The notes under the pieces are model-generated. The model worked only from the letters and a program-made list of their open reading frames with translations. It had not been told where the DNA came from and made no database searches. Shown in pieces: positions 14 to 28,437 of a stretch of DNA of 64,000 nt. Within the stretch, counting starts at the first letter, position 1. Every line of letters starts with the position of its first letter. The stretch lies in NCBI GenBank assembly GCA_041662545.1, contig JBAZSH010000001.1, positions 46,813-110,812 on the forward strand, given 5' to 3'. A program made the translations under genes and the position numbers. The DNA comes from Minisyncoccota bacterium (GTDB taxonomy: Bacteria > Patescibacteriota > Minisyncoccia > Phycocordibacterales > DSPV01).

Positions 14-421
14 ATGAAAAAAATTCTCATAATTGATGACGACAGAATCTTTGCCAAAGTGCTGGGCGAAGCTCTCATCCAAGAAAAATTTACTCTTGTT
101 GAAGCTACCAACGGCGTTGATGGCCTGACGGTTTTTGAAAAAGAGCGGCCTGATTTTGTTGTTTTAGATATGAAAATGCCCGGTCTGGACGGCATTGGCT
201 TTTTAAAACAGTTGCGTGAAAAAAATGAAAATAAAATTCCAACGCCGATTCTTATTGTCTCAAATTTTTCTGATCTTACTCAAGTGAGCGAAGGGGTTAG
301 TTTGGGAATCAAAGGTTATATTTCCAAAACTGAAAAGACGATAGAGAGTATTGTTGAAGATATAAAAAGAATTCTTGAAACCGAAGAAAGATTACGGCAA
401 AAAACACAACTTGGAAAATAA
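14..421 (+). CDS. Stand-alone response regulator receiver domain protein (CheY-like)
   Basis: 135 aa. The LIIDDD...DFVVLDMKMPGLDG...K receiver signature is present (phospho-acceptor Asp, conserved Thr/Lys). No output domain. The 3' end overlaps the prfB start. Confidence 0.8.
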   Translation: MKKILIIDDDRIFAKVLGEALIQEKFTLVEATNGVDGLTVFEKERPDFVVLDMKMPGLDGIGFLKQLREKNENKIPTPILIVSNFSDLTQVSEGVSLGIKGYISKTEKTIESIVEDIKRILETEERLRQKTQLGK

Positions 422-1286
422 TTCAATTCCAGAGAAAATAGCTAAATTGGAAGCGCTGATGCAACAGCCGGATTTTTGGGCTGATAAAACTAAGGCGCAG
501 GCGATGATCAAGGAACTCCAAGAACTAAAAATTGAAGCGGAGGGTGGTGGTAAATATGATAATGGTGGGGCAGTAATTACGATTTTTTCTGGCGCCGGTG
601 GCGATGACTCGGAGGATTTTTCGGCAATGCTTTTTAATATGTATCGGAAATTTATTGAACAACGCGGTTGGCAACTTTCTATAATTCACCAAAATCAAAA
701 TGACCACGGCGGTTTTCGCAATTTAACTTTTGAAATTTCAAATAAGGGAGTTTATGGAATTTTAAAAAATGAATCGGGCGTTCATCGTTTGGTGCGCATC
801 TCACCATTTAATGCCCAAAAAAAACGCCACACTTCTTTTTCTATGGTGGAGGTGATTCCGAAGTTTGAGAAAATTTCAGAGCTAGAAATTCCCGAGCAAG
901 AACTTAAAGTAGAATTCGCTCGCTCTTCTGGTCCCGGCGGTCAAAATGTTAACAAGCGCGAGACCGCTGTGCGCATTGTTTACTTGCCAACCAACTTAGC
1001 CGTTCATGCCGAAACCGAGCGCAGTCAATCAGCCAATCGCGACAAAGCGCTGGCGATTCTCAAAGGCAAACTTTATAAACTTCGCGAGGACGAACGCAGA
1101 GCCAAAGAGCAGGGAATGTATATTTCCAAAACGACCAGCGTAGAATGGGGCAATCAGATTCGCTCCTATGTTCTTCATCCCTATAAAATGGTTAAGGATC
1201 ACCGCACTGGCGTAGAAACCGCCCAAGTGGACAAAGTCCTCGCCGGCGAGCTGGATGAATTCATTGAAGCGGAGAAGAATTTGTAA
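375..1286 (+). CDS. prfB: Peptide chain release factor 2
   Basis: SPF motif (SPFNAQKKRHTSFS), GGQ motif (SGPGGQNVNK) and a PDFW N-terminal block typical of RF2. The start is ambiguous: ATG at 375 or TTG at 411. It is in the +1 frame relative to the upstream ORF, but no CUU-UGA frameshift site is present. Confidence 0.85.
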   Translation: MKPKKDYGKKHNLENNSIPEKIAKLEALMQQPDFWADKTKAQAMIKELQELKIEAEGGGKYDNGGAVITIFSGAGGDDSEDFSAMLFNMYRKFIEQRGWQLSIIHQNQNDHGGFRNLTFEISNKGVYGILKNESGVHRLVRISPFNAQKKRHTSFSMVEVIPKFEKISELEIPEQELKVEFARSSGPGGQNVNKRETAVRIVYLPTNLAVHAETERSQSANRDKALAILKGKLYKLREDERRAKEQGMYISKTTSVEWGNQIRSYVLHPYKMVKDHRTGVETAQVDKVLAGELDEFIEAEKNL

Positions 1287-1288: not shown

Positions 1289-2053
1289 TTAGCTATTGAT
1301 GATCTGTTCGATTACTTTCTTTGTTTCCTCCGGACCGGAAACGGCAATGGTTTGAACACCTGTCCGGACGACTGGATAATCATTACCGCCCGGCGACAAG
1401 CGATCGCCGATGAAAACCATCTCCGCGACTGGAATGCCAAGATGTTTTTCAATCTGCAAAATGCCGTAGCCCTTGTCTATGCCTTTTCTTGTTACATCAA
1501 TTGAAGTTGAGCCACCAATTTGGATTTCGTAATCAGGAAGCGTTGGCATTAGAAGGGTAATCACTTTTTGTCGTTTTTCCAGCGTTGGATCCCATTTTTC
1601 TTTGAGCTCCATCGGTGCTTGTTGACCTAAAGCAGAGAAAGTAATCTGGCTTTCGCGGTCTTCAATAATTTCTCCGAAAGGTTTAACCGGCGGTTCGTAA
1701 TTTGACTGGGCGAGCGCGACTTTTAGGGCGGAAATAATTTTTACTCTTTCTTCGTCGGAAAGTTTTTCGAAATAAATATTTTTCCAGTTACCATTGTCAA
1801 AACGATAAAAGCTGGAGGCGCAGGTGGGGAAGAGGAAAAGTTTGCCAAGCAGTTCCGTTGGCGCGCGAAAGCTTCCTAAAAATTGTTTCTCAAACTGCTT
1901 GTAGGGTCCGCCCGAAGTTATCGCTACCATTTTTTTGCCGAGAAGTTTTTCCAGAAGTTTCGACATTTCAGCGTCAAGTGGCTGCTTGCTTTCGGTTAGT
2001 GTCCGGTCGAGGTCAAAAATGATAATTCTTTTATTCTTGAAATTCATAGTCAA
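1289..2053 (-). CDS. Eukaryotic-type phosphomannomutase (HAD-IIB, PMM family)
   Basis: 254 aa. FDLDRTLT matches the DxDxT HAD motif I. IGGSTSIDV...KG and FIGDRLSPGGNDYPV blocks align with PMM2-type FFGDKTMPGGNDHEI. Confidence 0.8.
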   Translation of the reverse strand: MTMNFKNKRIIIFDLDRTLTESKQPLDAEMSKLLEKLLGKKMVAITSGGPYKQFEKQFLGSFRAPTELLGKLFLFPTCASSFYRFDNGNWKNIYFEKLSDEERVKIISALKVALAQSNYEPPVKPFGEIIEDRESQITFSALGQQAPMELKEKWDPTLEKRQKVITLLMPTLPDYEIQIGGSTSIDVTRKGIDKGYGILQIEKHLGIPVAEMVFIGDRLSPGGNDYPVVRTGVQTIAVSGPEETKKVIEQIINS

Positions 2054-2059
2054 GTTGGT

Positions 2060-3952
2060 TTATTCCGTCAAGATTTTTAAAATCTCGGAAAGTTTAAGCG
2101 AGGCGGTGCCGACAACGGAGTCGGCGGCGCCATAATAAATTAAAATTTCATCTTTACGAAGAACGGCGCCGCAAGGGAAAACCACATTAGGCACGGCGCC
2201 TTGGATTTCGTAATCTTCCCGCGCCTCAAAAATCGGTAAAGCAGTGCGCGAAATGACAATCGTTGGGTCTTTTAGGTCAAGGAGGGCCGCGCCGACTCGG
2301 TAATGGGTGGTTTTGGAGACGCCGTGGTAAAGCAAAAGCCAGCCGATTTTTGTTTCTATCGGAGGCGCGGCAATGCCAACTTTCGCTCCGTCCCACATTC
2401 CCATCCGCGGTTCGAGAATTTCTATACACTTGTCAATTTTTTGTTTTTCGAAGTTTAAAGAATCGGTGAAATCGGCGCAGATGCTACCACCAATTCGATG
2501 AAGAATCATAAATTTGCCACCGATTTTTTTCGGCAGAACGCAGGCATCTTTGTCGTCGGTGTCGCCGGCTGAAACCAGTTCTGGTTCAGACCAAAGCCAT
2601 TTTTTTGCCAAAAAATCTTTTTCATTGATAGAAGAAATTGCTACTCGGGGTACTCGGCCGTCAAAAGCGGTGTAGAGAATATAAAGCCGGTCACTAATTT
2701 TGGTAAAGCGCGGGTCTTCCACGCCGCCACCTTCGCCGTTACCGGTTTTTTCAAATGGCGCGCGCGGCAAGTAAATCGGTTCTTCGCTTCGCTCGTCAAT
2801 GGTAAAGCCGTTGTTAGTTTTGGCGTAGCCGAAAGTAGAAACATTTTTGTCGGAGACGGCGCGATAGAGTAAATGAATTTTGTCATCAAGTTCAATTGCG
2901 GCTGGATTGAAAACACCTTTGGCTTCAAAAAGTTTTTCTTTCCGTGGCACCAGAATTGGATTTCCGCCAAATCTTTTAACCAATTCTTGTTTTCCTAAGA
3001 GATAGTCAAGCAGTTCTTTGAGATTGGCCGAAGCTAGACAAGAAAAAGTGTCGGCGGCGCCGTAGAAAATTTTTAAATTTTTTCCTTCTACCAAAGCGCC
3101 GGTGGGGAAGGTGATATTGCCGACATTGCCAAATTTTTCATAATGTTCTTCTGCCGTCAAAAAAGCGCCTTTGGTTTTGCCAAGCACGATGCGGGGATTT
3201 TTTAAATCAAGCAAGGCAGCTTCAATGCCAAAACTTATTTCGCCACCACCCGTATAATGCTGAATGTGGGAGTAAATAATGAGCCAGCCTTTTTTAGTGA
3301 GAACAGGCGGCGCGCCGAGCTCCAAGTGGTCGCTCTCGGCGCGCCGCAAAGAAATTTTATGGGCTTCCAAATTTGGATACCATTTGTTCCAAAACTCCGG
3401 CGACCAGATGTCCTCTTCTTTTTCAAACTCAACATAAGCGATTTCCGAAGGTGGTTTGTCGCAGTTTACTGTTAAAAGCGCCGCGAACTTGCCGCCGATT
3501 TTTTGCGGAAAAATCGCCATCGCTTTGGCATTGAAAGGAGTGACTGGGTGTTTTTCAATTTTTTCAAAATCGCTGGTAACGGCGACGGCGATTTTTATGC
3601 CGTCAGCTGAAAAAGGAAATTTAGAAAGAGCAGTATAGAAAATATAATATTTGCTACCGAGTTTTGTTACGCGCGGGTCTTCGCAACCGAATTTTTCCCA
3701 ATCATATTTTGGCGCGATGAGTTGTCGGCGATTTTCAAAATGCGCACCGTCAGCGCTTTCGGCAATACCAACAGAAGAGATACTGATGTGGTTTTGATCC
3801 ATTAATTCTGGTTCTGCCAGCGCTCGGTAAAGGAGAATGGTTTTGTTTTTGTGAATGACGGAGCAGGGATTAAAAGCTCCCGCCGCTTCAAAGGGGTGAT
3901 TATTTACCGGTCCTAAAATCGGATTTTCTGGATGACGTTTAACGATAAACAT
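2060..3952 (-). CDS. Glycoside hydrolase family 130 (DUF377) protein with two tandem GH130 domains
   Basis: 630 aa. It has two copies of the GH130 N-terminal signature: RHPENPILGP...GAFNP...LLYRA and GGNPILVPRKE...GVFNPAAIE...LLYRAVS. EDPRV/EDPRF and YILYTA blocks are also present. Confidence 0.75.
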   Translation of the reverse strand: MFIVKRHPENPILGPVNNHPFEAAGAFNPCSVIHKNKTILLYRALAEPELMDQNHISISSVGIAESADGAHFENRRQLIAPKYDWEKFGCEDPRVTKLGSKYYIFYTALSKFPFSADGIKIAVAVTSDFEKIEKHPVTPFNAKAMAIFPQKIGGKFAALLTVNCDKPPSEIAYVEFEKEEDIWSPEFWNKWYPNLEAHKISLRRAESDHLELGAPPVLTKKGWLIIYSHIQHYTGGGEISFGIEAALLDLKNPRIVLGKTKGAFLTAEEHYEKFGNVGNITFPTGALVEGKNLKIFYGAADTFSCLASANLKELLDYLLGKQELVKRFGGNPILVPRKEKLFEAKGVFNPAAIELDDKIHLLYRAVSDKNVSTFGYAKTNNGFTIDERSEEPIYLPRAPFEKTGNGEGGGVEDPRFTKISDRLYILYTAFDGRVPRVAISSINEKDFLAKKWLWSEPELVSAGDTDDKDACVLPKKIGGKFMILHRIGGSICADFTDSLNFEKQKIDKCIEILEPRMGMWDGAKVGIAAPPIETKIGWLLLYHGVSKTTHYRVGAALLDLKDPTIVISRTALPIFEAREDYEIQGAVPNVVFPCGAVLRKDEILIYYGAADSVVGTASLKLSEILKILTE

Positions 3953-3974
3953 AGGATAATTTTAGCACATTTCG

Positions 3975-5069
3975 TTATCGGGCGAGAGATTTAAGGAGCG
4001 AGGCGAGAGGCATAGAGGCGACGCAAACGCGCTTGTCGCCACCGCCGTAGTAGACCCGAAGAATATTTTGCTTGTCCAAAGTGGCGCCGCAGGCGTAGAC
4101 GACACCGGGTTTGCCGTCATTTTCATACCATTCATCTGGCGCAAGGATAGGAAAGTTGGCTCGACCAATTTCTTTTTTGGGATTTTTTAGGTCAAGCAAA
4201 AGAGCGCCGAGTTTATAGCGATGTGGTTCTTTTTTATCCATCGCATGATACAAAACCAACCAGCCGTCTTTAGTTTTAAGCGGCGGTGGCCCGGCGCCGC
4301 GCAGATTACTGTCCCAACCTTTGTGATTTTTATTCTGCTTGAAAACGCTTTTAATTTTCTTTTTGCCAGTTGCCAAATCTTCCAACTGGTCGACGAAATC
4401 AATCTGAATTTTTGGCGTGATGCTGTGAAGGATGGCAAACTTACCTTTAATTTTTTCCGGAAATAATACCCAATTTTTATTAATCTCGCCGGGCGGTGAA
4501 ATGAAAATTGATTTGCTCCAGCGCCACCTCTTCTTTTCCAAATCGCTTTCTTTGATGGAAATAACACCGACGCGGATGAAATCCCAGCCATCAAAACCAT
4601 TGAAGGTAACATAAATTTTGCCGTCAATTGCCACCATTCGCGGGTCCTCGACGCCACCGCAGGAACCACCCGAGGGATACATCACTGGATTGAAATTGCT
4701 CACACCGGCGCGGGAGAGTGCGTCCAGGCGAGGGCTTGACATACCAAAAACCGGAAAGGGAAATTTGTCGGTGAAATTTTCACCATCGGTGCTGGCGGCA
4801 TAACCGAGTCGCGAAACGCCATCATTGCCGATGGCGCGATAAAGTAGATGAGTTTTGCCGTTTTGGTCGCGCAAAGCCGCCGGATTAAAAACGCCATTGG
4901 CCTCAAAATGATTGCTAGATTCAGGGCTGAGAATGGGATTTTTAGATGTCCGTTGGAGTTTGGAAATTTTTGCCAGTGACAGTTTTTTGATTTTTGATCT
5001 GGTATTTAGCCAGGAAAAAAAAGCTGCCACCAGTGCGAGCATTAAGCCTACTGACAAAAGCCAGCCCAT
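3975..5069 (-). CDS. Membrane-anchored GH130 (DUF377) glycosidase/phosphorylase
   Basis: 364 aa. N-terminal TM helix (LLSVGLMLALVAAFFSWL) followed by KNPILSPE...GVFNPAAL...LLYRAIG and GGVEDPRMV GH130 blocks. Confidence 0.75.
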   Translation of the reverse strand: MGWLLSVGLMLALVAAFFSWLNTRSKIKKLSLAKISKLQRTSKNPILSPESSNHFEANGVFNPAALRDQNGKTHLLYRAIGNDGVSRLGYAASTDGENFTDKFPFPVFGMSSPRLDALSRAGVSNFNPVMYPSGGSCGGVEDPRMVAIDGKIYVTFNGFDGWDFIRVGVISIKESDLEKKRWRWSKSIFISPPGEINKNWVLFPEKIKGKFAILHSITPKIQIDFVDQLEDLATGKKKIKSVFKQNKNHKGWDSNLRGAGPPPLKTKDGWLVLYHAMDKKEPHRYKLGALLLDLKNPKKEIGRANFPILAPDEWYENDGKPGVVYACGATLDKQNILRVYYGGGDKRVCVASMPLASLLKSLAR

Positions 5070-5166: not shown

Positions 5167-5847
5167 GTGATTTATTTTGATAATGTTTCAAAAATTTACT
5201 CGGAGGACTCATCGGCTTTGCGCGACATTACCTTGTCTATTGAGCCGAAAGAATTTATTTCCATCGTCGGTCATTCTGGCGCCGGCAAGACAACTTTGCT
5301 AAAAATGATTTTGGCTGAGGAAAGGCCGTCCTCGGGTAAAGTGTTTTTTGATAAAATTGATGTCCACCAGCTTTCCCGCCCGGAAATTACTAAATATCGC
5401 CGGCGCATTGGCACGATTTTTCAGGATTTTCGTTTGATTCCCGATAAGACCGCCTACGAAAATATCGCCTTTGCTATGGAAGCGGCGGGGCGGTTGGACG
5501 ATGAAATTGAATCAGATGTGCCCCATGTTTTGGATCTGGTGGATTTAGGCGATAAGCTTTGGAATTTTCCCCACGAACTTTCCGGCGGTGAAAAACAGCG
5601 AGTAGCCATTGCGCGGGCGATTGTTAATCAACCGGAAATTTTGATGGCCGACGAGCCGACTGGCAATTTGGATCCCCTTAACACTTTTGAAATTGTTCAG
5701 ATTTTGAAAAAAATTAATGATTTGGGTACGACGGTAATTTTGACCACTCATAATAAAGGGGTGATTGATTCGCTCGGCAAGCGCGTAATTACCCTAGACG
5801 CCGGCCGCATCATCCGCGATGACCAAAAGGGACACTATTTATTATAG
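5167..5847 (+). CDS. ftsE: Cell-division ABC transporter ATP-binding protein FtsE
   Basis: GTG start. Walker A GHSGAGKTTLLK, ABC signature LSGGEKQRVAIARA and Walker B ILMADEPTGNLD are present, with end-to-end similarity to E. coli FtsE. No ftsX follows. Confidence 0.85.
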   Translation: MIYFDNVSKIYSEDSSALRDITLSIEPKEFISIVGHSGAGKTTLLKMILAEERPSSGKVFFDKIDVHQLSRPEITKYRRRIGTIFQDFRLIPDKTAYENIAFAMEAAGRLDDEIESDVPHVLDLVDLGDKLWNFPHELSGGEKQRVAIARAIVNQPEILMADEPTGNLDPLNTFEIVQILKKINDLGTTVILTTHNKGVIDSLGKRVITLDAGRIIRDDQKGHYLL

Positions 5848-5849: not shown

Positions 5850-8627
5850 ATGAAAAAAATGAAAATTAAAATTCTGGCGGTAGTAATTTTTATTTTTCCT
5901 TTTTTCGCAAACGCCGCCACTTTCGTTTCTGGTGATATTTCTACTAACACCACTTGGACCAAAGCCGAAAGCCCCTACATTATTTCTGACCATTCTTTTA
6001 TAAATGTTTCTGTTGGCACCACTTTGACAATAGAACCTGGCGTAGTCGTGAAATTTGGCAATCGTTCCCGTTTAAATATTTATGGTTCATTAAAAGCTGT
6101 TGGCATAGCTAGTGACAAAATTTATTTTACCTCCTTAATAAACGATGCCATTGGCGGCGATGATAATGGTGATGGTAATTTAACCGAACCATCGCCTTAT
6201 GATGATTGGAATATTTTTTTAAGAAGCGGTTCGTATGATATTGAATTTGAGAATGTAGGATTTAGTTACAGTTACGATACCGTATGGGCATCAGAATCAG
6301 AAGTTTCTTTTGTTAATGTCTCGTTTACTGATTGTTTTGATGCTATTGGTGCTTACAAATCCAAGATAGTTATTAATACTGTCGAAGTCAGGGATATTGA
6401 TGGTAGTGTGGTTTGGGGAGACAATGGTAAATTTGAAATTGAGAGTTTAAATGTAGATGGGGTATATGGATTTTATCCACCTTTGGATTTTTTTCGCGGC
6501 GCTGAGATAACTATAGATAATTCTAAAATTACGAATGTTGGGCTAGCTCGGGCATTAAGAATAGATGGTTCACACGCTACTGTGACTAATTCGGTTTTTT
6601 CTGGTGGGTTATATAGCGGCATTGAAATTCATGATGATTTTTTTAAAAAAATTCCTTCAACTTTGTCAATCACTAATTCCATAATTGAAAATTTTGTAGA
6701 CAACGGATTATATATCTATTCAAGTAAGGTTGATATTAGTAAAACTAAAATTTCCAGCAATCGGCATGGGATAAGAATAAATGATTGGTCCGGTCATTCC
6801 AGGTCCGAAGTCGCTGTTTCTCAAAGTTCAATTGTTGACAACAGTGATTATGGAATTTACACCAATGGATTGAATTCTGTTGATGTTCGCAATAATTGGT
6901 GGGGTGACTCAAGTGGCCCTTTTCACCAAACACTCAATTCGTCCGGTTTAGGCAATGCTGTTTTTGGCAATGTTTTGTTTGACCCGTGGCTGGCGAGCGA
7001 TCCGACAGCAGAAAAAAGAATTGACCCGGTGCTCATTATCCCAGGCATTCTCGGCTCAGCGGAGAAAGACGGCGTCTGGTTGATTGATCCGATTTTTCAT
7101 ACCTATGACGACTTAATCGCCACTCTGGTGGCAAACGGCTATGTTGAAGGTCAAGATCTTTTTACATTTCCCTATGATTGGCGTTTTTCTAATATACTGA
7201 CGGCGGTGGCGTTGAAAAATAAGATTGCGGAAGTGAAAAATATTTGCCAGTGCGACAAGGTGGATTTGGTAGCGCATTCAATGGGTGGTCTCGCGGCGCG
7301 GCAATATATTCAATCTCCCCAGTACGCCGATGATGTGGACCAATTAATTTTTCTCGGCACACCACACCTCGGAGCACCAAAGGCGTATTATTCTTGGGAA
7401 GGAGCAACTGTTCCGCCCAACGATCCAGTTTATTCGGTCATCAAATTTATGTTATGGAGCGAAGCGTTTAAGCTTGATCAAAGTTTATTTGATTATATTC
7501 ATCAATCAGTTTTTTCAATTAGAGAGTTATTGCCAATTTATGATTATCTGACTCTCAAGGATTCTGGTATTGTGGAAAAGTATCCTAACGGTTATCCAGC
7601 AAACTCTTTTCTTGAAAATCTTTCCGCGGGCACAGATGAACTCTTGAATTCCGGTGTTGAGATTATCAACATTGTTGGCAATACAGGAAATTCCACTATT
7701 ATTTCAATTGAAGTAGCATCATCAACAGAACCAAATTTGTGGGAGCATGGCAAACCTGAAATTGTGAGTTATGGGGGAGGAGACGAAACTGTTCCAATAA
7801 CAAGTGCAATTTTAACTTTTTCAGATTCTTATGTTTTTGATAGTAGACATAATAAACTACCGACAATTGCTGAAGGGATAGTTTATAAAGAACTTACTAC
7901 TAAAGATGCTACTACTTTGGTGGATAATTGGGATTTAATCAATTTAAAATTATTGCTAATAAAAATCCTTTCTCCCGCCGACATTCAAGTAATTGCTCCC
8001 GATGGTAGTATTGTTGGCAAGGATTTTGCTACCGGACAGGAAATCAATCAAATTCCCGGTGCCTTTTATTCTGGTTTCCAGACCGACAATGAATATGTGA
8101 CCATTCCTAATCCACAACCTGGCGATTATATTGTTAAAACTATTGGCACTGGCTCCGGCAGTTATATTGTGGCAACCAGTTTAATCTCTAATACTGGCAG
8201 TGTTGAGAAAGAAACCATTGGCACAACAAAACCGGATTTTGTCGCTCAAGTGGAAGTCAGTGTGTCTGGTGATGACTCGCTGGAAATTTTACCTCCTGAT
8301 GTTCAGGCGATTACGCCAGATTTCGTCATTGCCGATATTCAACTTGCCTATGACAATGGCTGGCTCAAAGACAAGAAAATCCGAGACAAACTCATCAAAG
8401 AAATCAAAGCAATGATTAAAGTTGAGAAGAAAATTGAAAAAATTGAGACCAAAGTCAAAGAGAAAAACATTGAAAAGAAAATTGAAAAACTAGAGGTCAA
8501 AGTGGATAAGGTGCTTGCCAAGGCATTAAAAACAGAATTAAAGTTGTATAATGAAGGGAAGATTTTGACCGATGAAGGATTTAATTTAATTAAAAACGAT
8601 ATTGAATTATTAATGTTAATTTATTGA
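5850..8627 (+). CDS. Secreted multidomain protein: parallel beta-helix repeats + LCAT/PGAP1-like alpha/beta-hydrolase (lipase) + K/E-rich coiled-coil tail
   Basis: 925 aa with a signal peptide (MKKMKIKILAVVIFIFPFFANA). The N-terminal half has beta-helix repeat motifs (NNWWGDSSGPF). The central region has PVLIIPGILGS...YDWR and the nucleophile elbow AHSMGG seen in lecithin:cholesterol-acyltransferase-like lipases. The C-terminus has KIEKIETKVKEKNIEKKIEKLEVKVDK repeats. The gene starts 3 nt after the ftsE stop. Confidence 0.6.
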   Translation: MKKMKIKILAVVIFIFPFFANAATFVSGDISTNTTWTKAESPYIISDHSFINVSVGTTLTIEPGVVVKFGNRSRLNIYGSLKAVGIASDKIYFTSLINDAIGGDDNGDGNLTEPSPYDDWNIFLRSGSYDIEFENVGFSYSYDTVWASESEVSFVNVSFTDCFDAIGAYKSKIVINTVEVRDIDGSVVWGDNGKFEIESLNVDGVYGFYPPLDFFRGAEITIDNSKITNVGLARALRIDGSHATVTNSVFSGGLYSGIEIHDDFFKKIPSTLSITNSIIENFVDNGLYIYSSKVDISKTKISSNRHGIRINDWSGHSRSEVAVSQSSIVDNSDYGIYTNGLNSVDVRNNWWGDSSGPFHQTLNSSGLGNAVFGNVLFDPWLASDPTAEKRIDPVLIIPGILGSAEKDGVWLIDPIFHTYDDLIATLVANGYVEGQDLFTFPYDWRFSNILTAVALKNKIAEVKNICQCDKVDLVAHSMGGLAARQYIQSPQYADDVDQLIFLGTPHLGAPKAYYSWEGATVPPNDPVYSVIKFMLWSEAFKLDQSLFDYIHQSVFSIRELLPIYDYLTLKDSGIVEKYPNGYPANSFLENLSAGTDELLNSGVEIINIVGNTGNSTIISIEVASSTEPNLWEHGKPEIVSYGGGDETVPITSAILTFSDSYVFDSRHNKLPTIAEGIVYKELTTKDATTLVDNWDLINLKLLLIKILSPADIQVIAPDGSIVGKDFATGQEINQIPGAFYSGFQTDNEYVTIPNPQPGDYIVKTIGTGSGSYIVATSLISNTGSVEKETIGTTKPDFVAQVEVSVSGDDSLEILPPDVQAITPDFVIADIQLAYDNGWLKDKKIRDKLIKEIKAMIKVEKKIEKIETKVKEKNIEKKIEKLEVKVDKVLAKALKTELKLYNEGKILTDEGFNLIKNDIELLMLIY

Positions 8628-8628: not shown

Positions 8629-8976
8629 ATGAAAATATTGAAAAATGTTTTTTTGTTGGTGGTTGTTGTCGGGTTGTCTTATTTATTATCTTATCCCATT
8701 GGTTCTCTATATGGCAGTTTATTTACAGGAACAGGATCTTTTGTAGATATGACTAGTCTTTTGGGTATTCCTCTAGCTTACATCTTTCTTTTGACTTCAG
8801 TTTTCACCGTTTGGGGTGGTACGAAAAAATATTGGTGGATCGGTATTGGTTTAATTCCAGTGGCAATCGTTGAACTTTATCTTGACCCAAATCGTATTTA
8901 TTTTCCAATTCTTCTCGGCTTCCTCGGCTGGCTTGTTGGTTTTGGGATTCGGAAACTTTTCGTTGGGAAAAAATAA
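8629..8976 (+). CDS. Small integral membrane protein (about 4 TM), hypothetical
   Basis: 115 aa, hydrophobic throughout. It starts 2 nt after the stop of the upstream gene. Its 3' end (8893-8976) is duplicated at 15279-15365. Confidence 0.5.
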   Translation: MKILKNVFLLVVVVGLSYLLSYPIGSLYGSLFTGTGSFVDMTSLLGIPLAYIFLLTSVFTVWGGTKKYWWIGIGLIPVAIVELYLDPNRIYFPILLGFLGWLVGFGIRKLFVGKK

Positions 8977-9359: not shown

Positions 9360-9710
9360 ATGAATATAAAAATGAAAAATATAATATCTATTACTGAAGC
9401 CAGAAGCAACATTTTTGACATTGCCAAAAAAATCCAGAGGCAAGGCAACCATTACATTTTTACCGAGAACGGCAAGCCAAAAATCGCCGTAATGTCCGCC
9501 GATGAATACGAAAATCTTATGGAAGATTTGTTTTTAGCATCTGACCCTAAATTCGCCGCCGAAATAAAAAAGTCAGAAGAAGAATTTGCCCGAGGAGAGT
9601 ATTCTACTTGGGAGGAAGTAAAGGCAAATTTAGACCAGAGAAGAAATTTTGTTGTTGCCGATAAGTCCAAAAAAGGTTATTCCGCAAAGAAGAATAAAAA
9701 AAACAAATAA
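9360..9710 (+). CDS. Type II antitoxin, Phd/YefM family
   Basis: The N-terminus ISITEARSNIFDIAKK...IAVMSADEYENLME matches the Phd/YefM fold. A K-rich C-terminal tail is present. The stop lies 1 nt before the toxin start. Confidence 0.7.
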   Translation: MNIKMKNIISITEARSNIFDIAKKIQRQGNHYIFTENGKPKIAVMSADEYENLMEDLFLASDPKFAAEIKKSEEEFARGEYSTWEEVKANLDQRRNFVVADKSKKGYSAKKNKKNK

Positions 9711-9711
9711 T

Positions 9712-9978
9712 ATGTCCCAAAGATATTTTATTTTTTTGCGGAGAAGCGCGGAAAAAATTTTGTATAAAATGCCGAGTCAAATTAGCCAAAGAATTGAAAA
9801 AGTTATTGACGAGCTGGAGACAAATCCTTATCTTGGTTCAAAAATGCACGGGGAATTGTCGCATTTAAGAAAAATTAGAGTTTCAGATTACAGAATAATT
9901 TACCAAATTTTTGAATCAAAGATAGTTATTGAAATTCTAGAAATCCAAAGTCGTGGCAATGTGTTATATGATAGGTAG
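9712..9978 (+). CDS. Type II toxin, RelE/ParE family
   Basis: 88 aa from the ATG at 9712 (MSQRYFIF...). The C-terminal block RIIYQIF...IVIEILEIQSRGNV is typical of RelE/ParE toxins. It lies immediately downstream of the Phd/YefM gene. Confidence 0.7.
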   Translation: MSQRYFIFLRRSAEKILYKMPSQISQRIEKVIDELETNPYLGSKMHGELSHLRKIRVSDYRIIYQIFESKIVIEILEIQSRGNVLYDR

Positions 9979-10245
9979 AAAATAAAATGTCAAAAGAAAT
10001 GGAAAAATAATTTATTAAAATATGCCTATATTAAATTGGATTGCAAAAGAAAAAATTGAAAATCATGTAAGGATGTGCCTTTTCGGTTGCTTAAAAAAAA
10101 TAAAAAGTTGTCGCTTGGAGAAAAAAGCGAAAATCCCGCTTTTGGCGGGACCGCGTGATTAGTAGGATTTCTCCTACATCAAAAGTATAGCATGGCAATC
10201 AGTTATTAAGCAATATTTGTGGATAAGTGAAAAAGTGAGAAAACG

Positions 10246-10286
10246 AAGGCCTCGCCTTTGTTGCAAAGGCGAGGCCTTTATTTCTC
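10246..10286 (+). terminator. Intrinsic terminator-like hairpin (14-bp perfect stem AAGGCCTCGCCTTT/AAAGGCGAGGCCTT, 5-nt loop, followed by TATTTCTC)
   Basis: Perfect inverted repeat read directly from the sequence, with a T-rich 3' flank. It lies in a 370-nt noncoding stretch between relE and the defence operon. Confidence 0.5.
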
Positions 10287-10350
10287 TGGTTTTTTCTCAA
10301 AAAAGTGGTAATGTTTAAACATCCCCCAGTGTGTTTGGGGGAATAAAAAT

Positions 10351-11277
10351 ATGGCGATTTTTAAGATAAAAAATAATAAGTTAGAAAAGTTTAAAGAAAG
10401 AGAAGCTTTTTTGGAAAAAGATATCCAAAAGCTTACTGAATTAAACTTGAGTGAGATTTTCAAGTTGGAGTATATGTCTTCGCAATTTTCTCTAAAAAAT
10501 TTGAGAATTGATACTTTGTGTTTTGACCCTGAAAATAAAGCCTTTGTTATTATTGAATACAAAAAAGATAGAAGTTTCAGTGTCATCGATCAAGGCTTTG
10601 CGTACCTATCTTTACTGTTAAACAATAAGGCGGATTTTTTGGTTGAGTATAACGAAAAAAATAAATCAAAAACATTGTCGCGCGAAAGTGTAAATTGGTC
10701 TCAGTCCAAGGTAATTTTTATTTCTCCATTTTTTTCATCTCACCAGAAAGAGGCCATCAATTTCAAAAATCTACCAATTGAATTATGGGAGATAAAATAT
10801 TATGGTAGTGATTTAGTTGAATATAAGAATATTGAACCGCTAGAATCATCAGAAAAAATAGAAACCCTTACTGGTAGCAAGTTTATTAAAGAGGTGATAA
10901 AAGAGGTAAAAAATTATGATTTAGAACATCATCTCAAAAAAGGATCTGACAAAACAAGGAAATTATTCTTTGTGTTAAAAGAAAAAATTCTTGAGTTAGG
11001 AGAAATCAACGAAAAATATTTACAATTTTATGTGGGCTATAAAATGGGCGACAGCTACATTAGTTTTTGTCAGATACATTTTTATAAAGAAAAATTGGAG
11101 ATATCAATTCTTATACCGGATAAAAAATTATCTGATTCTAAAAAGTGGGCTCGAAAAGTACCCAAATCTTATGGCTGGGCGAAAAATAGCAAATTTTTTA
11201 ATATCAAAACTGAAAAGGATATTTCGTACACAATGAATTTGATAGAGCAGTCTTACGAGTTTAATAAAAGTAGATAA
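10351..11277 (+). CDS. PD-(D/E)xK nuclease-fold protein (NucS/DUF91-like N-terminal region), hypothetical
   Basis: 308 aa. The block CFDPENKAFVIIEYKKD fits a D...ExK restriction-endonuclease-like catalytic motif. It is the first gene of a tight co-directional operon. Confidence 0.45.
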   Translation: MAIFKIKNNKLEKFKEREAFLEKDIQKLTELNLSEIFKLEYMSSQFSLKNLRIDTLCFDPENKAFVIIEYKKDRSFSVIDQGFAYLSLLLNNKADFLVEYNEKNKSKTLSRESVNWSQSKVIFISPFFSSHQKEAINFKNLPIELWEIKYYGSDLVEYKNIEPLESSEKIETLTGSKFIKEVIKEVKNYDLEHHLKKGSDKTRKLFFVLKEKILELGEINEKYLQFYVGYKMGDSYISFCQIHFYKEKLEISILIPDKKLSDSKKWARKVPKSYGWAKNSKFFNIKTEKDISYTMNLIEQSYEFNKSR

Positions 11278-11280
11278 TTT

Positions 11281-12498
11281 ATGGTAAGAGAAGCATCAAT
11301 CAAAAATCTTACAAATGCGAAACGGGCAAAGAATGATGAGTTTTATACTCAGTACATCGATATTCAAAAAGAAATTGAAAAGTATTTAGATTACAACCCT
11401 AATACATTTCGAGCCAAAATAGTGTACTGCAACTGCGATGACCCGTTTGAGAGCAATTTCTTTCGTTATTTTGTGCTAAATTTCAACAACCTTGGATTGA
11501 AGCAGCTAATCACAACGAGCTACAAACCATCGCCTGTCGCCAACACGCAACTGGGATTATTTGGTGATGACAAAACACTTGTAAAAGCAAAAGGTCGGCC
11601 GAAGGTAACGGCGAACAAGTTCATTATCAACGAGGTGCACGACATAGATGGCGATGGCGAGTTTAACTTGAAGGATGTTGCAAAACAGTTAAAGATAAAT
11701 AAACACAACGAGTGGATGCCACTAAGTGGTGATGGTGATTTCCGTAGCGATGAGTGCGTCGAACTACTCAAGCGGTCTGACATCGTAATAACCAATCCTC
11801 CGTTTAGTTTGTTTCGCGAATATGTTAAACAACTTTTTGATTACAAAAAAAGGTTTCTGATAATCGGCAATATGAATGCGATTACCTATAAAGAAGTATT
11901 CCCTTTAATTAAGGATAATAAAATATGGCTTGGGGCTGGTAAAAATGACGGACGAAATGTATGGTTTCAAATTCCTGATCATTATGAAAAATTTCATAAG
12001 GAGGAAAATGGTAAGAAATATGCTTTTGTCGCAGGAACAATTTGGTTTACGAACCTTGACCATGGGCGCCGTCATCAACCGTTGCCGTTGATGACCACGA
12101 CAGAGGTAATTAAATTTGGTGCAAAAAAGTCATTCGAAAAGTACGATAACTACAACGCAATAGAGGTTCCACTGGTTAAATACATCCCAAATGATTACGA
12201 TGGCGTGATGGGTGTACCAATTAGTTTTCTTAGCAAATATAACCCCGATCAGTTTGAGATCTTAGGAGCTACTCAAAGAGGTTGCCATGATGAGGTTCCC
12301 GACACAAAAAAGTATGATGATTACTGGGAAGTAAGACAGAATGGTGAAAAAACAGGATCGTCTGGTGGAAAAACAAATGAAAATGCCAATTTGGTTGAGA
12401 ATGACGGGAAAAAGAATTACTTTATAAATAATGAAAGCCGAATAATTCAATCTGCTTACCAAAGAATTTTTATAAGACACAAGAAAGCTAAAAAATAA
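11281..12498 (+). CDS. DNA N6-adenine methyltransferase, EcoRI-methylase-like family (NPPF motif)
   Basis: 405 aa. N-terminal NDEFYTQY...VYCNCDDPFESNFF and catalytic IVITNPPFSLF (motif IV, (D/N)PP(F/Y)) are typical of gamma-class adenine methyltransferases of the M.EcoRI family. Confidence 0.7.
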   Translation: MVREASIKNLTNAKRAKNDEFYTQYIDIQKEIEKYLDYNPNTFRAKIVYCNCDDPFESNFFRYFVLNFNNLGLKQLITTSYKPSPVANTQLGLFGDDKTLVKAKGRPKVTANKFIINEVHDIDGDGEFNLKDVAKQLKINKHNEWMPLSGDGDFRSDECVELLKRSDIVITNPPFSLFREYVKQLFDYKKRFLIIGNMNAITYKEVFPLIKDNKIWLGAGKNDGRNVWFQIPDHYEKFHKEENGKKYAFVAGTIWFTNLDHGRRHQPLPLMTTTEVIKFGAKKSFEKYDNYNAIEVPLVKYIPNDYDGVMGVPISFLSKYNPDQFEILGATQRGCHDEVPDTKKYDDYWEVRQNGEKTGSSGGKTNENANLVENDGKKNYFINNESRIIQSAYQRIFIRHKKAKK

Positions 12499-12501
12499 AT
12501 T

Positions 12502-13242
12502 ATGGCTAAAGTTATAAAATTATTTGATCCAATTTATATGAAGGCGTTAAAACTTGCTTCAGAAATTCATTCTAAATCAAGAGAACAAATTGATGTAACA
12601 AAAAAGGATAAAAAATTAGTAATTTATTATTTGCAAGGAGGTTGTATCACGCATGCATACTTAGCAATTAATCATTGGTTGTCGGGCGATCTTGGTGCCC
12701 CTTTTATCCACAAGAGGATAATACAAGAAATGGGAAATGTGGCACTCTTTATTTCTGTATTACCGGAAGAACACAGGTATATAAAATCTTTTTTTGAAAA
12801 AAGTATAATAAGTTTTCCAAATATTTTTTCGACAAAATGGGAAAAAGAAAAAAAGGTAATTTTGAATAAAATGGAATGGGATGATCAAACTTTAAAAAAA
12901 TGGCAGGACAATGCGAAGTTATTAAATGATGGTTTTTCGAATGCAATGCATGCGCAAATTGAGACAGCCGGTTGGAACTCAGATAAATATACGGGGGAAT
13001 ATGATTATCGTCTTCAATGGAATGAATTTCAAGGAGGATTTATAAGGAATTTTGATTTTGGGCATTATATTATAATTCCTACTATTAAACCTTTACTCAT
13101 AAATAAAGAAGTGCTTTTAATAGAAAAAGAAGATTTGGATAAGATAAATCAAATTTTGGAAGTAGTTTTTAATACCGGATTAGATATATTTAATAATTTA
13201 CGAGACAGTGTTTTAAGTAAACAACAGGTAAACACTGGCTAA
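12502..13242 (+). CDS. Hypothetical protein (candidate restriction/effector partner of the MTase)
   Basis: 246-aa ORF starting 3 nt after the MTase stop. No recognizable motifs; placement is the only functional clue. Confidence 0.3.
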   Translation: MAKVIKLFDPIYMKALKLASEIHSKSREQIDVTKKDKKLVIYYLQGGCITHAYLAINHWLSGDLGAPFIHKRIIQEMGNVALFISVLPEEHRYIKSFFEKSIISFPNIFSTKWEKEKKVILNKMEWDDQTLKKWQDNAKLLNDGFSNAMHAQIETAGWNSDKYTGEYDYRLQWNEFQGGFIRNFDFGHYIIIPTIKPLLINKEVLLIEKEDLDKINQILEVVFNTGLDIFNNLRDSVLSKQQVNTG

Positions 13243-13259
13243 TATAAACAATAAATAAT

Positions 13260-14102
13260 ATGAAAAACAACACTTCGCTTGCCATTTTTGAAACTCACAA
13301 AATTCGCCGGTATTTTGACGAGAAAACAGAAACTTGGTTTTTTTCGGTTATTGATATTGTGGCGGCTTTGACGGAACAGAATGATTTTCAAGTGGCTAGA
13401 TCGTATTGGAAAAAGCTTGCACAAAGACTCAGGGATGAAGAAAGTCAAGTGGTGACAAAATGTCACCGGTTGAAAATGATGGCTCAAGACGGCAAGATGC
13501 GAGAAACCGATGCCGCCGATGTGGAAATTATTTTGCGCCTGATTCAATCAGTGCCAAGCAAAAAAGCCGAACCTATCAAATTGTGGCTGGCGAAAGTCGG
13601 TTATGAACGAATGCAGGAAATGAGCGACCCGGAAATAGCGCTGAATCGTTCTCGCGCATATTGGCAAAAACAAGGAAGAAGCGAGAAATGGATCCAGCAA
13701 CGGATGATGGGGCAAGAGACTAGAAATAAACTCACTGACTATTGGGCGGAAAGCGGTGTAAAAAAAGGCGAAGAATTTGCCATTCTTACAAATATAATTC
13801 ACCAAGAATGGAGCGACTTGTCGGTAAAGGCGCACAAAAATCTTAAGGGACTGAAAACGCAAAATCTTCGTGATCATATGAGCGAAGAAGAATTGATTTT
13901 CACCGCGCTGGCGGAGCTTTCTACCAGAAGAATTGCTGAAACTGACAAAACACAAGGTTTGGAAGATAATAAAATTCCTGCGATTAAGGGCGGTCGGATT
14001 GCCAAGGGCGCAAGAAAGGCGCTTGAAGAAAAAACAGGGAGGTCGGTTATAACTGGGAATAATTATTTGCCAAATAAACAACTGATTAAAAAATTAAAAT
14101 AA
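13260..14102 (+). CDS. Bro-N domain / DNA-damage-inducible protein D (DinD)-like protein
   Basis: N-terminal [24 protein letters not shown] matches the Bro-N pattern. The C-terminal part ([20 protein letters not shown]...[25 protein letters not shown]...[13 protein letters not shown]) resembles E. coli DinD. Confidence 0.6.
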
Positions 14103-14103
14103 T

Positions 14104-15273
14104 ATGAAAACAATTTTAAAAACCAATATCACTGTCAAAGATATTTGCGAAGGATTCATCTATAACGAACTGGAAGGCAGGGGTTTGCTTGGCTTGTCTG
14201 GCAAACTCACCATTCAGCCGGAATATCAGCGAAATTATATTTATGCATCCGATGGCGGTAAGCGAGAAATGGCCGTCATTGAGTCAGTTCTTAAAGAATA
14301 TCCAATAGGGTTGATTTATTTCAATAAAGTTTCTAATGATAAATTTGAAGTATTGGACGGTCAACAGCGCATCACAAGTCTTGGACGATTTATCACCGAC
14401 AAATTTGCCATCAAAGATGAAAATGGGATGCCGCAGATTTTTGGTAATATGGCGAGGGATAAGCAAAAAAAGATTTTGGAAACGAAATTACTGATTTACG
14501 AATGCGAAGGTACTGAAAGTCAGATAAAAGAGTGGTTCAAGACTGTAAATATTGCCGGTGTTCCGCTCAACAATCAGGAATTACTCAACGCAGTATATTC
14601 TGGCCCATTTGTAACTAAGGCTAAAGAGGAATTCAGTAATAGTCAAAACGCTAATATTCAAAAATGGAGTGCGTATGTTTCTGGTAGTGCCAACAGGCAG
14701 GAATTTTTGGAATGTGCTTTTGATTGGGTAAGCAAGGGAAGCATTGGCGACTACATGAGCAAGCATCGCAAAGACAAAAACATTGATGAGCTAAAAAAAT
14801 ATTTCAATACTGTCATCGATTGGGTATCTAGCATATTTACTGATGTAGAAAGCGAAATGCGCGGGCTTAAATGGGGGCTACTTTACGAGGAATATCACAA
14901 AAAGGCATATAGCCCAGCGAAAGTAGCGACCGAGGTGCGCAAGCTCTACGGAGATCCATACATCAAAAACCGCAAAGGCATTTTTGAGTATATTCTCGGT
15001 GGTTCCAGTGATACAAAATTGCTTGAAGTTCGGGTTTTTGATGAAGCGACTAAAAGATCTACTTACGAATCACAGACCGCTAAAGCAAAGAAAAAAGAAG
15101 AATCAAATTGTTCTCTCTGCGCTGTCGGACATGATGCGAACAAGGGTAAAATTTGGAGTTTTGCTGAAATGGAAGCAGACCATGTATCAGCGTGGAGCAA
15201 GGGTGGCGCTACTTCGGCAAAAAATTGCCAGATGCTCTGCAAAACTCATAATCGAGCAAAAGGAAATCAGTAA
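14104..15273 (+). CDS. DUF262 (ParB-like DGQQR NTPase/nuclease domain) fused to C-terminal HNH endonuclease; type IV-restriction-like
   Basis: 389 aa with the DGQQRITSL motif of DUF262/ParB-like proteins. The C-terminal CSLC...[12 protein letters not shown]...[10 protein letters not shown] is a canonical HNH motif. The gene starts 1 nt after the dinD-like stop. Confidence 0.7.
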
Positions 15274-15499: not shown

Positions 15500-15898
15500 A
15501 TGAACAACACCTATAATTGGTATCAAACTTTAATCAAGCCAGCGTGGTCGCCACCAAGTTGGTTGTTCGGACCGGTTTGGGGTGTGCTTTACGCGATCAT
15601 TGCTGTTAGCTATGGTTATGTCGGCTATCTTTTTTCCCAAGGCAGAATTTCTTTTGCCACACTTTTACCTTTCATTCTAAATCTGGTTTTTAACTTTGCC
15701 TTTACGCCATTACAATTTGGTTTGAAAAATAATTATCTAGCCGCCATTGATATTTTACTCGTTCTCGGCACGCTTGTTTGGGCGTTGATAGTTATCTGGC
15801 CGCAGGCGCGCTGGGTTGCTGTTGCCAACATTCCATATTTGCTTTGGGTTTCCTTCGCGACAGTTTTGCAATTAACTATTACTTATTTAAATAGATAA
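15500..15898 (+). CDS. TspO/MBR family protein (tryptophan-rich sensory protein), short form
   Basis: WYQTLIKPAWSPPSWLFGPVWGVLY is the TspO signature. At 132 aa it appears to lack the first TM helix. An upstream in-frame stop excludes a longer ORF. Confidence 0.65.
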   Translation: MNNTYNWYQTLIKPAWSPPSWLFGPVWGVLYAIIAVSYGYVGYLFSQGRISFATLLPFILNLVFNFAFTPLQFGLKNNYLAAIDILLVLGTLVWALIVIWPQARWVAVANIPYLLWVSFATVLQLTITYLNR

Positions 15899-16419: not shown

Positions 16420-17403
16420 ATGATCGATAATCAACTTATTCCACATAAGTTTTGGCCGCGACGCGTTTCGTGGCTCACCGTTGTGCTCGCGCTTCTCGCG
16501 GTCGGCACCCTTGTCGCAGTTTCTCGTCCGGGGGTGTATTACGCGACGCGTATGGGAATAGACGGCGGAATGATGGAAAACTCCAGTGGCTCGGGAGCAG
16601 TGCCTCCTTCGGCTGTGGATATGCCAATGATGGACGGTGATGTGTCAAATAAGTATTACCCGTATCCTTATCCCAGCCCCGATGTGCCAATAACCGACAC
16701 GCGAGAATTTTTGAAAATATATTACAACGCTTCTATGCAGACGCGCGATGTGCAAGGTCTCACGCGCCGAGTCGAAACGACGGTGCGAGGTTACGATGGC
16801 CGCATTGACCAGCAATCTAGTTCTCCGAAATATGGCTATGTGAATTTCGCTCTGCCTCAAAGTAAATATGATGCTTTTCGCGCCGAGCTTGAAGATCTAG
16901 TGGGTAGCAAATTTCTTACGGTCAACATTTCATCCCAAAATCTTTTGGCGCAAAAAGTGAGCATTGAAGAACAGCAAAAACAAGCCGAGACCGCGTTGGC
17001 GGATTACAAAACGGTGCGCCAAAAAATTGTCAACGCTCATGCTAGTGCCGTACAGTTGCTCCAGTCAAAAATAGATGCCGCCGAGGGCAAATCGGATGAA
17101 TTGGCTTTGTTGAACGAACAGCTCGCCAATGAAAACACTTTGTACGCGAAGCGATTAGACAACGCTGATAGAAATATTAAATACGGGCAGGATTGGCTTA
17201 AAGCCGTCCAGACGCAAGACCAAACACTGTTGGCTAATGTCGCAACGGTTTCAGGTACGATCTCTATCCAATGGATAAGCTACTGGGCGATGGCTCAGCT
17301 TTACCTACCGGGTTATTGGATTCCAATCATCTTTGCCGTGTTGACATTGCTCTCGTTCCTCTGGGATCGCCGCCGTTTCGGAACGGGTAGTCATCATCAA
17401 TGA
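16420..17403 (+). CDS. DUF4349-like coiled-coil membrane protein, hypothetical
   Basis: 327 aa with an N-terminal TM, a long coiled-coil region (QKVSIEEQQKQAETALADYK...) and a C-terminal TM (WIPIIFAVLTLLSFLW). The 5' third is markedly GC-rich. It overlaps the next gene by 4 nt. Confidence 0.4.
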   Translation: MIDNQLIPHKFWPRRVSWLTVVLALLAVGTLVAVSRPGVYYATRMGIDGGMMENSSGSGAVPPSAVDMPMMDGDVSNKYYPYPYPSPDVPITDTREFLKIYYNASMQTRDVQGLTRRVETTVRGYDGRIDQQSSSPKYGYVNFALPQSKYDAFRAELEDLVGSKFLTVNISSQNLLAQKVSIEEQQKQAETALADYKTVRQKIVNAHASAVQLLQSKIDAAEGKSDELALLNEQLANENTLYAKRLDNADRNIKYGQDWLKAVQTQDQTLLANVATVSGTISIQWISYWAMAQLYLPGYWIPIIFAVLTLLSFLWDRRRFGTGSHHQ

Positions 17404-24754: not shown

Positions 24755-24812
24755 GTGGTTGTTGATAAGATTAACGCTTGCGGACAGAAAAAGGTGTATA
24801 ATGTAAAGGAGT

Positions 24813-25966: not shown

Positions 25967-25969
25967 TTT

Positions 25970-26272: not shown

Positions 26273-26292
26273 TTTTATTTCATTTTTTCCAA

Positions 26293-28436: not shown

Positions 28437-28437
28437 A

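Follow-up and report, generated by a model that had tools for sequence, protein, structure and literature searches.

Tle4 (TplE, PA1510 of P. aeruginosa; PDB 4r1d), a PGAP1-like phospholipase effector of a type VI secretion system (T6SS), and the eukaryotic phospholipase A/transacylases LCAT and LPLA2 (PF02450; PDB 4x90, 4xx1 and 5bv7) are the nearest characterised relatives of a putative exported lipase encoded in the 64,000-nucleotide stretch of contig JBAZSH010000001.1 analysed here, which we call the window. The lipase open reading frame (ORF) lies at 5850..8627 on the + strand and encodes 925 amino acids (aa), with a signal peptide, a beta-helix, an LCAT/PGAP1/Tle4-like lipase domain, a beta-sandwich and a helical tail. 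One nucleotide after its stop codon starts a gene for a 115-aa protein with four hydrophobic segments (8629..8976, + strand), which we name mini-TM for its transmembrane (TM) segments. The main new result of this work is that the lipase and mini-TM genes form a conserved two-gene cassette. Bacteria of the candidate phyla radiation (CPR, or Patescibacteria) represent a large share of bacterial diversity. They lack complete lipid synthesis, and their acyl-glycerol membranes are rich in lysolipids; it has been proposed that their lipids are taken from other cells, possibly via a phospholipase A, and no enzyme was named (PMC7242380). The dependence of CPR bacteria on foreign lipids, on which a first-pass annotation of the window had built its proposal, is documented (PMC7242380). 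That the DNA comes from a CPR organism, as the same annotation assumed, agrees with the Patescibacteria affiliation of the homologs and with a neighbouring gene product 100% identical to Candidatus Paceibacterota bacterium WC673_00295.

Every context look-up made from a full-length lipase relative showed a mini-TM homolog directly downstream, and an LCAT/PGAP1 lipase gene adjoins in three of three reverse look-ups made from mini-TM proteins. Pairs were then counted with hidden Markov models over all fetched loci, for distinct lipases whose downstream region was available: a mini-TM homolog follows 15 of the 22 Patescibacteria-type (sandwich-bearing) lipases, a non-homologous small 3-TM ORF occupies the same slot after 3 further of the 22, and no mini-TM homolog was met after any of 60 remote lipase-only homologs from other phyla. 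The mini-TM family comprises at least 251 members, all of 98-144 aa and all from Patescibacteria where named, and searches of Pfam, NCBIfam, PADLOC and PHROG gave no match to it. From the charge distribution in an alignment of copies from four loci, mini-TM is predicted to adopt an N-in/C-in topology with about 25 extracellular residues. Its core, PLxYIFFLxLLFTAFGGxKKYWWIGxxLIPAxxFExYFDxxHIYFP, is conserved at 80% or above and includes E, D and H as polar residues within the membrane or close to it, the window copy having Arg for His; such conservation would exceed the need of a passive anchor. Moreover, the tail-less homologs L021 and L028 end in a C-terminal TM helix of their own, which suggests that membrane tethering is a conserved requirement; against this, P0060 has a divergent short C-terminus yet keeps its mini-TM partner. 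Mini-TM may thus be an anchor, an immunity factor or an acceptor of products. L098 encodes a 5'-truncated, tail-bearing protein without lipase, with a non-homologous 3-TM ORF next downstream. In L092 (1305-5360), a degenerate or duplicated cassette begins with a tail-less LCAT-type gene, continues with a 99-aa 3-TM ORF and a 155-aa divergent mini-TM paralog, and ends with a tail-module remnant of about 50 aa and a canonical mini-TM gene.

The lipase itself belongs to a large family. A protein search yielded 1,221 homologs; those that are named come from metagenome-assembled genomes (MAGs) of Patescibacteria/Parcubacteria, with annotations such as 'hypothetical', 'PGAP1 family' or 'right-handed parallel beta-helix repeat-containing'. 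Among the best 120 of these 1,221 homologs, the lipase and sandwich are present in all 120, the tail in 109 and the beta-helix in 88, and 78 possess the full architecture of beta-helix, lipase, sandwich and tail. The fusion of a beta-helix to a lipase, which the first-pass annotation had called unusual, is on these counts the prevailing architecture in this family, whose members number more than 1,200, and is thus the family norm, with a variable head. Among the best 120 homologs, the part that precedes the lipase measures between 27 and 858 residues. Since the beta-helix is found in only 88 of them, this N-terminal domain is an accessory and variable module. Across species-representative genomes, most occurrences of the sandwich-bearing type are in MAGs labelled as Patescibacteria (Giovannonibacteria, Paceibacterota, Moranbacteria, Jorgensenbacteria and others), and only remote relatives of the lipase domain are known from Chloroflexota, actinomycetes, Pseudomonadota and further phyla; the family thus appears essentially confined to Patescibacteria. 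The closest relatives of the window locus (L097 and L099) come from samples of Hainich groundwater. We found no description of it in the searchable literature, and it is an uncharacterised variant of a known enzyme kind.

The window sequence bears out a single ORF at 5850-8627 with all the motifs that had been quoted from it, and a database copy of the protein (P0001) begins at the second Met and has 922 aa. A Sec-type signal peptide (5850..5915, + strand; aa 1-22, MKKMKIKILAVVIFIFPFFANA with A as the next residue) ends at a cleavage site between ANA and A and has no lipobox. This N-terminal hydrophobic segment is the sole one in the 925-aa protein, with no further TM segment, and 99 of 117 homologs have a similar hydrophobic stretch at the N-terminus. 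Thus, the earlier suggestion of a secreted protein is supported, and the lipase would be exported without any other anchor. A full-length AlphaFold2 model, computed with 60 homologs as input (mean predicted local distance difference test, pLDDT, 90.6), predicts a signal helix at 2-15, a beta-helix at about 24-340, an alpha/beta-hydrolase core at 394-683 with a cap at about 510-602 inside it, a beta-sandwich at 700-813 and a helical tail at 823-924. Each of the three Pfam families that had been named as a check exceeds its curated cut-off: Beta_helix PF13229 (1e-17, 64.6 bits vs 25.9, aa 219-356), LCAT PF02450 (4.7e-16, 59.4 bits vs 21, aa 417-514) and PGAP1 PF07819 (2.1e-8, 34.7 bits vs 24.3, aa 393-510). 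The right-handed parallel beta-helix (5916..7004, + strand; aa 23-385) forms a ladder of strands over aa 24-340 in the model and has an NWWG motif at its end (aa 349-352); it also matches Pfam NosD (1e-5, 25.4 bits vs 23.6) and, by Foldseek, the alginate epimerase AlgG (4nk6). The 'adhesin-like' role once proposed for the beta-helix is a guess.

The alpha/beta-hydrolase lipase domain (7005..7919, + strand; aa 386-690) includes PVLIIPGILGS at aa 393-403, FPYDWRFSN at aa 440-448 and VDLVAHSMGGLAARQY at aa 471-486, and within these the LCAT signature PGILGS (aa 398-403), YDWR (aa 442-445) and HSMGG (aa 476-480). In a 60-sequence alignment of homologs, the lipase signature motifs are invariant or nearly so, and they align to PYDWR and AHSMG of LPLA2. 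The predicted catalytic residues are Ser477 (7278..7280, + strand), the nucleophile in HSMGG, between strand 471-476 and helix 478-488; Asp645 (7782..7784, + strand), the acid, in GGGDETVP (GGGDxTVP in the family) and directly after strand 635-644; and His667 (7848..7850, + strand), the base, after strand 660-663. S477, D645 and H667 are invariant in 60 of 60 aligned homologs, and when their placement was read from strand and helix positions of the model relative to the alpha/beta-hydrolase fold, each follows the strand expected for nucleophile, acid and base. The absence of a Ser-Asp-His triad on structural modelling, proposed earlier as grounds for discarding the lipase assignment, was thus not observed, and the lipase looks catalytically intact. 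The helical cap (aa 510-602) is aromatic-rich, with an F/W/Y content of 16% vs 8.5% in the core. A Cys466-x-Cys468 pair (7245..7253, + strand) lies just upstream of the nucleophile strand, both Cys being invariant in the 60 sequences; a disulfide, metal binding or a redox switch are candidate roles for such a pair in a secreted lipase.

Because of its sequence, profile and Foldseek matches, the enzyme is predicted to lie within the lipase/phospholipase sector of the alpha/beta-hydrolase clan. A single-sequence search against solved structures returned LPLA2 as the best match (8.7e-5), then a Bacillus-type lipase and LCAT, and a family-profile search against the PDB returned Tle4 4r1d (4.7e-9) as the best, then Lip_vut1 (3.7e-7) and LPLA2 (9.5e-5). 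Foldseek matches were the propeptide form of BlEst2, LCAT, Tle4, the A. fulgidus lipase, family I.1/I.2 lipases, PhaZ7 and PGAP1/Bst1. The kinship with phospholipases suggested by the first-pass annotation therefore holds, and the enzyme seems to be about equally close to Tle4/PGAP1 and to LCAT/LPLA2. With Tle4 it has in common PGI[LM]G[ST], Y[DN]W..SN and HSMGGLVAR around the nucleophile, a fold match (Foldseek 1.2e-6) and a dedicated partner gene adjoining the enzyme gene. Unlike Tle4, which is delivered by the T6SS and lacks a Sec signal, the window protein has a Sec-type signal peptide, and no T6SS genes were found among its neighbours (ftsE, GH130 genes and the defence island described below). 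The partners also differ: Tli4 is a soluble periplasmic immunity protein, whereas here it is a 115-aa 4-TM protein, and no adjacent soluble or lipoprotein immunity gene of the Tli type was met beside the lipase, its conserved neighbour being the 4-TM protein. Finally, Tle4 has neither the beta-helix nor the sandwich and helical tail of the window family.

The likeness to LCAT and LPLA2 extends to a Pfam score above cut-off, to PGxLG[SN], YDWR and the AHSMGG nucleophile elbow, to a fold match with a target TM-score of 0.50 over about 400 columns, and to the Ser-Asp-His order, in which a cap is placed behind the nucleophile half. In contrast to these enzymes, only the N-terminal half aligns by sequence, the Pfam match covering profile positions 67-170 of 392 and ending just past the nucleophile; a helical cap is present at aa 510-602, and the C-terminal half is unaligned by sequence. 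The window protein is moreover bacterial, with added beta-helix, sandwich and tail, and shows no evidence of the membrane-binding subdomain, lid disulfide or acyl-acceptor site of LCAT. Transacylase activity cannot be inferred from a likeness of this kind, and the acyltransferase function and the host targeting that had been proposed for the protein would be conjectural.

Other comparisons concern the domains that surround the lipase. A C-terminal beta-sandwich is found in true lipases such as B. licheniformis BlEst2 (6wpx), the A. fulgidus lipase (2zyh) and T. tengcongensis EstA3, and BlEst2 in its propeptide form is the top Foldseek match, with 548 aligned columns that take in the lipase and the domain after it. 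EstA3 requires its sandwich for long-chain substrates, and the inhibition of BlEst2 is ascribed to its C-terminal domains in the depositors' title (PMC10816834). These three proteins differ from the window protein by a sequence identity of only about 11-13% and by the lack of a beta-helix, a helical tail and a mini-TM partner. Family I.1/I.2 lipases (LipA-Lif/LipB; 9g8u) are also fold matches in which a membrane-protein gene directly follows the lipase, and they require this membrane-bound foldase, encoded directly downstream. Lif, however, has a single TM helix, and its large periplasmic helical domain is wrapped around the lipase, whereas the protein encoded downstream here has 115 aa with four hydrophobic segments, and its loops do not exceed about 18 residues. 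Since mini-TM is almost without an exposed domain, a Lif-type mechanism cannot apply.

The beta-sandwich (7932..8294, + strand; aa 695-815), the helical tail module (8304..8624, + strand; aa 819-925) and the partner gene had all been missed in the first-pass annotation. The sandwich, whose invariant residues include P709, D711, G723, K724, Y740, S741 and G742, resembles in position the C-terminal sandwiches of BlEst2 and the A. fulgidus lipase (PMC10816834), and searched alone against the PDB it gave no significant match. The tail has a conserved core of about 80 residues, from DIxxAYxLGWI to INxQAYNLLKEDINWLLNN. An exhaustive representative search found 338 representatives of the tail profile among 1.84 billion proteins (a word-indexed protein search gave short fragments only); the matches listed all lie at the C-terminus or a few residues from it, and 64 of the 68 long tail-bearing representatives contain the lipase domain. 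Neither the PDB, by sequence and by fold, nor BFVD holds a significant relative of the tail. Weak matches to the helical module FIMAH (Pfam PF22888) occur on 11 of 24 homolog tails (best 1.4e-5), and P0053 has a precomputed FIMAH match; those on P0264 and P0379, with 19.7 and 20.8 bits, are under the curated cut-off of 24.8. The window tail has no match to FIMAH at E<=1, and no functional literature on FIMAH was found. The tail module also occurs in a protein of L095 (P0347, 4001-6265) that combines a beta-helix with an Ig-like part, has no lipase and no mini-TM nearby, and adjoins, in phage-like surroundings, genes for a small terminase subunit and a Prim-Pol; it may be a protein of a CPR phage or mobile element.

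Within the tail, a K/E-rich hairpin insert of about 30 residues (8415..8507, + strand; aa 856-886) includes KIEKIETKVKEKNIEKKIEKLEVKV at aa 861-885 and often has an LPGKPK-type turn mid-way. It had been described as lysine/glutamate coiled-coil repeats, a description not confirmed as worded: the insert is present in about 60% of homologs and absent in about 40%, and Tandem Repeats Finder (TRF) reports only marginal 9-bp micro-repeats (scores 32-33). As read from the sequence, its hydrophobic residues are spaced 4-3-4, which a heptad pattern would allow. The insert is a beta-hairpin in the full-length AlphaFold run and an antiparallel alpha-helical hairpin in a run on the C-terminal part only (pLDDT 84.8). 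Because the two runs disagree on secondary structure, the hairpin seems robust and its alpha or beta nature does not; the segment may be metamorphic or context-dependent, or the difference may be a modelling artefact.

The position of the cassette varies between genomes. In the relatives L001, L007 and L009, the gene order is FtsK, PG_binding protein, Y1 transposase, lipase, mini-TM, PKD/LTD protein and rplJ. The window contains a backbone syntenic with these relatives at 43003-52238 (FtsK on the - strand, PG_binding_1, rplJ-rplL, with an L10 leader at 51192-51324), from which the cassette is missing. Thus, given that the slot before rplJ lacks the cassette in the window, unlike in three relatives, the cassette is positionally mobile between genomes. 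It is often found beside transposase, restriction-modification (RM) or toxin-antitoxin (TA) genes.

In conjunction with these data, we tentatively favour the view of an active LCAT/PGAP1/Tle4-type lipase that is exported and, at the cell surface and with a mini-TM partner, acts on foreign membrane lipids, and we would give this view a slightly smaller chance of being right than of being wrong. The Sec-exported serine lipase would act outside the Paceibacterota (CPR) cell, its beta-helix head serving as a variable, exchangeable targeting or spacer module, and its core would use Ser477, Asp645 and His667 beneath the aromatic-rich helical cap. The beta-sandwich that follows the core, as in some true lipases, might aid the binding of long acyl chains or act as a regulator, and a family-specific helical tail would close the protein. 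We infer that mini-TM holds the otherwise anchorless enzyme at the producer membrane, or that it receives or handles the products. From its sequence and modelled fold, the enzyme is most likely a phospholipase A, and the deacylation of foreign membrane glycerolipids, from host, neighbour or necromass, would be its most likely role; the resulting lysolipids and fatty acids might feed a cell dependent on outside lipids, and the host envelope may be weakened as well. This reading fits the documented gap in CPR lipid synthesis and the lysolipid-rich membranes of these bacteria (PMC7242380), and the lipid-scavenging or attack role suggested in the first-pass annotation is plausible and, from sequence and model, modestly strengthened. 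A bolder form of the proposal sees in the cassette the device, missing until now, with which Parcubacteria-type CPR would harvest lipids, a surface-held phospholipase A on a variable beta-helix head with mini-TM docking via the helical tail. Acyl chains or lysolipids would be stripped from the host membrane and passed to mini-TM; alternatively, mini-TM would dock the enzyme through a new C-terminal helical docking module and keep it harmless. We regard this bolder form as doubtful, with a real chance of being correct.

Several observations weigh against a surface-held phospholipase that acts on foreign lipids. The polyhydroxybutyrate depolymerase PhaZ7 and the glycosylphosphatidylinositol (GPI) deacylase PGAP1 share the predicted fold class, so that a non-phospholipid ester substrate is possible, and the LCAT Pfam match is limited to the N-terminal half of the profile. 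About 25 extracellular residues together with a very conserved polar core (FExYFDxxHIYFP) would be odd for a simple anchor. The lipase-less, tail-bearing L095 has no adjacent mini-TM gene, and the close tail-less homolog L020 also has none. Furthermore, mobile or defence genes are common neighbours of the cassette, a setting that would suit a conflict or toxin role as well.

In such a role, the cassette would be a toxin-immunity pair, in which an antibacterial or host-killing phospholipase analogous to Tle4 is matched by a 4-TM, membrane-embedded immunity factor. Tle4 is indeed the best family-profile structure match and has the three motifs given above in common with the lipase, the pairing with mini-TM is tight and appears translationally coupled, and transposase, RM and TA genes are frequent neighbours. 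However, the Tli proteins that are known cover the lipase or its lid and are either lipoproteins or soluble proteins of the periplasm, whereas mini-TM has almost no exposed surface, and L020, 48% identical in the lipase region, has no such gene; the Sec signal peptide, the lack of a T6SS context and the lack of PADLOC or PHROG matches also speak against it, and we consider a toxin-immunity pair unlikely. An anti-phage defence function or a phage origin of the cassette was likewise rejected, PADLOC and PHROG being without matches. Less likely again, in our view, is an envelope enzyme directed at the producer itself, which would be positioned by mini-TM and would act on the cell's own outer leaflet or on lipid-anchored surface molecules, for example by making the CPR lysolipids or by deacylating lipoproteins or lipoglycans as PGAP1 does GPI. 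The PGAP1 Pfam score above cut-off, the presence of PGAP1/Bst1 among the fold matches and a dedicated membrane partner in the producer agree with this possibility, as does the lysolipid enrichment of CPR cells, which has been proposed to relieve curvature stress. A housekeeping enzyme should nevertheless have a stable position and a constant architecture, whereas this cassette moves and its N-terminal module is highly variable, and a large beta-helix would be needless for the cell's own membrane.

In a further explanation, the beta-helix would bind a polymer, and the enzyme would be an esterase for polyhydroxyalkanoate, a cutin-like polyester or an acylated polysaccharide. The beta-helix does resemble the polysaccharide-acting AlgG and the NosD/CASH type; PhaZ7 is moreover a fold match (E about 6e-5) with a faint NCBIfam match. 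This match, to the PhaZ7 equivalog NF050060, reaches 18 bits against a cut-off of 450, lipases and phospholipases outrank PhaZ7 both by sequence and by fold, the LCAT-type motifs PGxLGS and YDWR are present, and a quarter of the family does without the beta-helix, all of which makes a polymer or carbohydrate esterase improbable. A last explanation concerns ftsE (5167..5847, + strand; TIGR02673 equivalog, 268.6 bits vs a cut-off of 264.85), whose end lies 3 nt ahead of the lipase ATG. Coiled-coil hydrolases of the cell wall are under the control of FtsEX, and in 52 of 64 informative related metagenome loci ftsE is followed by an FtsX-like gene, whereas no ftsX was detectable in any frame of the 64-kb window; the lipase and mini-TM, with four TM segments as in FtsX, might then replace FtsX, with FtsE controlling the hydrolase through the helical tail. 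Yet the order ftsE then lipase is found only in the window and in its closest relative L099 (FtsE 93% identical), about 20 other cassettes having no ftsE nearby; mini-TM is unlike FtsX (hhalign probability 0.2%), its cytoplasmic loops are too short for a coupling helix, and the low-GC defence island immediately downstream suggests a rearrangement. An FtsE-coupled system is therefore highly improbable, and a functional link between lipase and FtsE was rejected because the adjacency is not a family feature and mini-TM is unrelated to FtsX; ftsE is context, outside the conserved cassette.

If the favoured reading of an enzyme acting on foreign lipids is followed, the lipase family provides a concrete candidate for lipid acquisition by CPR bacteria. 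Its merits as a candidate are a large, Patescibacteria-centred family, a predicted secreted product with an apparently intact triad and phospholipase kin, and a dedicated membrane partner. Were the lipid-harvesting proposal true, the lysolipid-rich, host-derived membranes of CPR bacteria would be explained in molecular terms. Were the enzyme merely an ordinary esterase, our data would still correct the labels 'hypothetical' and 'pimeloyl-ACP methyl ester carboxylesterase' and define a conserved operon. The mini-TM family and the helical tail are uncharacterised modules that are orphans in the PDB, and the lipase/mini-TM cassette, together with this orphan tail, represents the part most worth following up.

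The remainder of the window holds several other loci. A low-GC defence island (9360-15273; GC 0.29-0.41 vs 0.44-0.47 in the flanks) begins about 400 nt downstream of the cassette and contains a Phd/ParE toxin-antitoxin pair, the PADLOC candidate PDC-S18 (DUF5655), an EcoRI-type adenine methylase, an uncharacterised 246-aa ORF, PDC-S13/Bro-N and a GmrSD-N/HNH type II restriction enzyme. Upstream of ftsE, a divergent unit on the - strand (1289-5069) consists of two GH130-family genes (beta-1,4-mannooligosaccharide phosphorylase-like) and a phosphomannomutase-like HAD gene. A programmed prfB frameshift was considered at 14..421 / 375..1286 and rejected, the upstream ORF encoding a receiver-domain protein. 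A TspO/MBR family membrane protein is encoded at 15500-15898. At 16420-18263, the gene for a DUF4349 protein, whose coiled-coil-rich ectodomain lies between two TM segments, shares 4 nt (ATGA, 17400-17403) with the gene of a secreted M23 peptidase; this pair looks like an EnvC/LytM-type cell-wall hydrolase pair, which deserves mention in a window from which ftsX is missing. Finally, a type IV pilus block at 23627-29499 encodes PilM and two T2SSE/PilB-PilT-type ATPases, and type IV pilus genes are typical of episymbiotic CPR bacteria.

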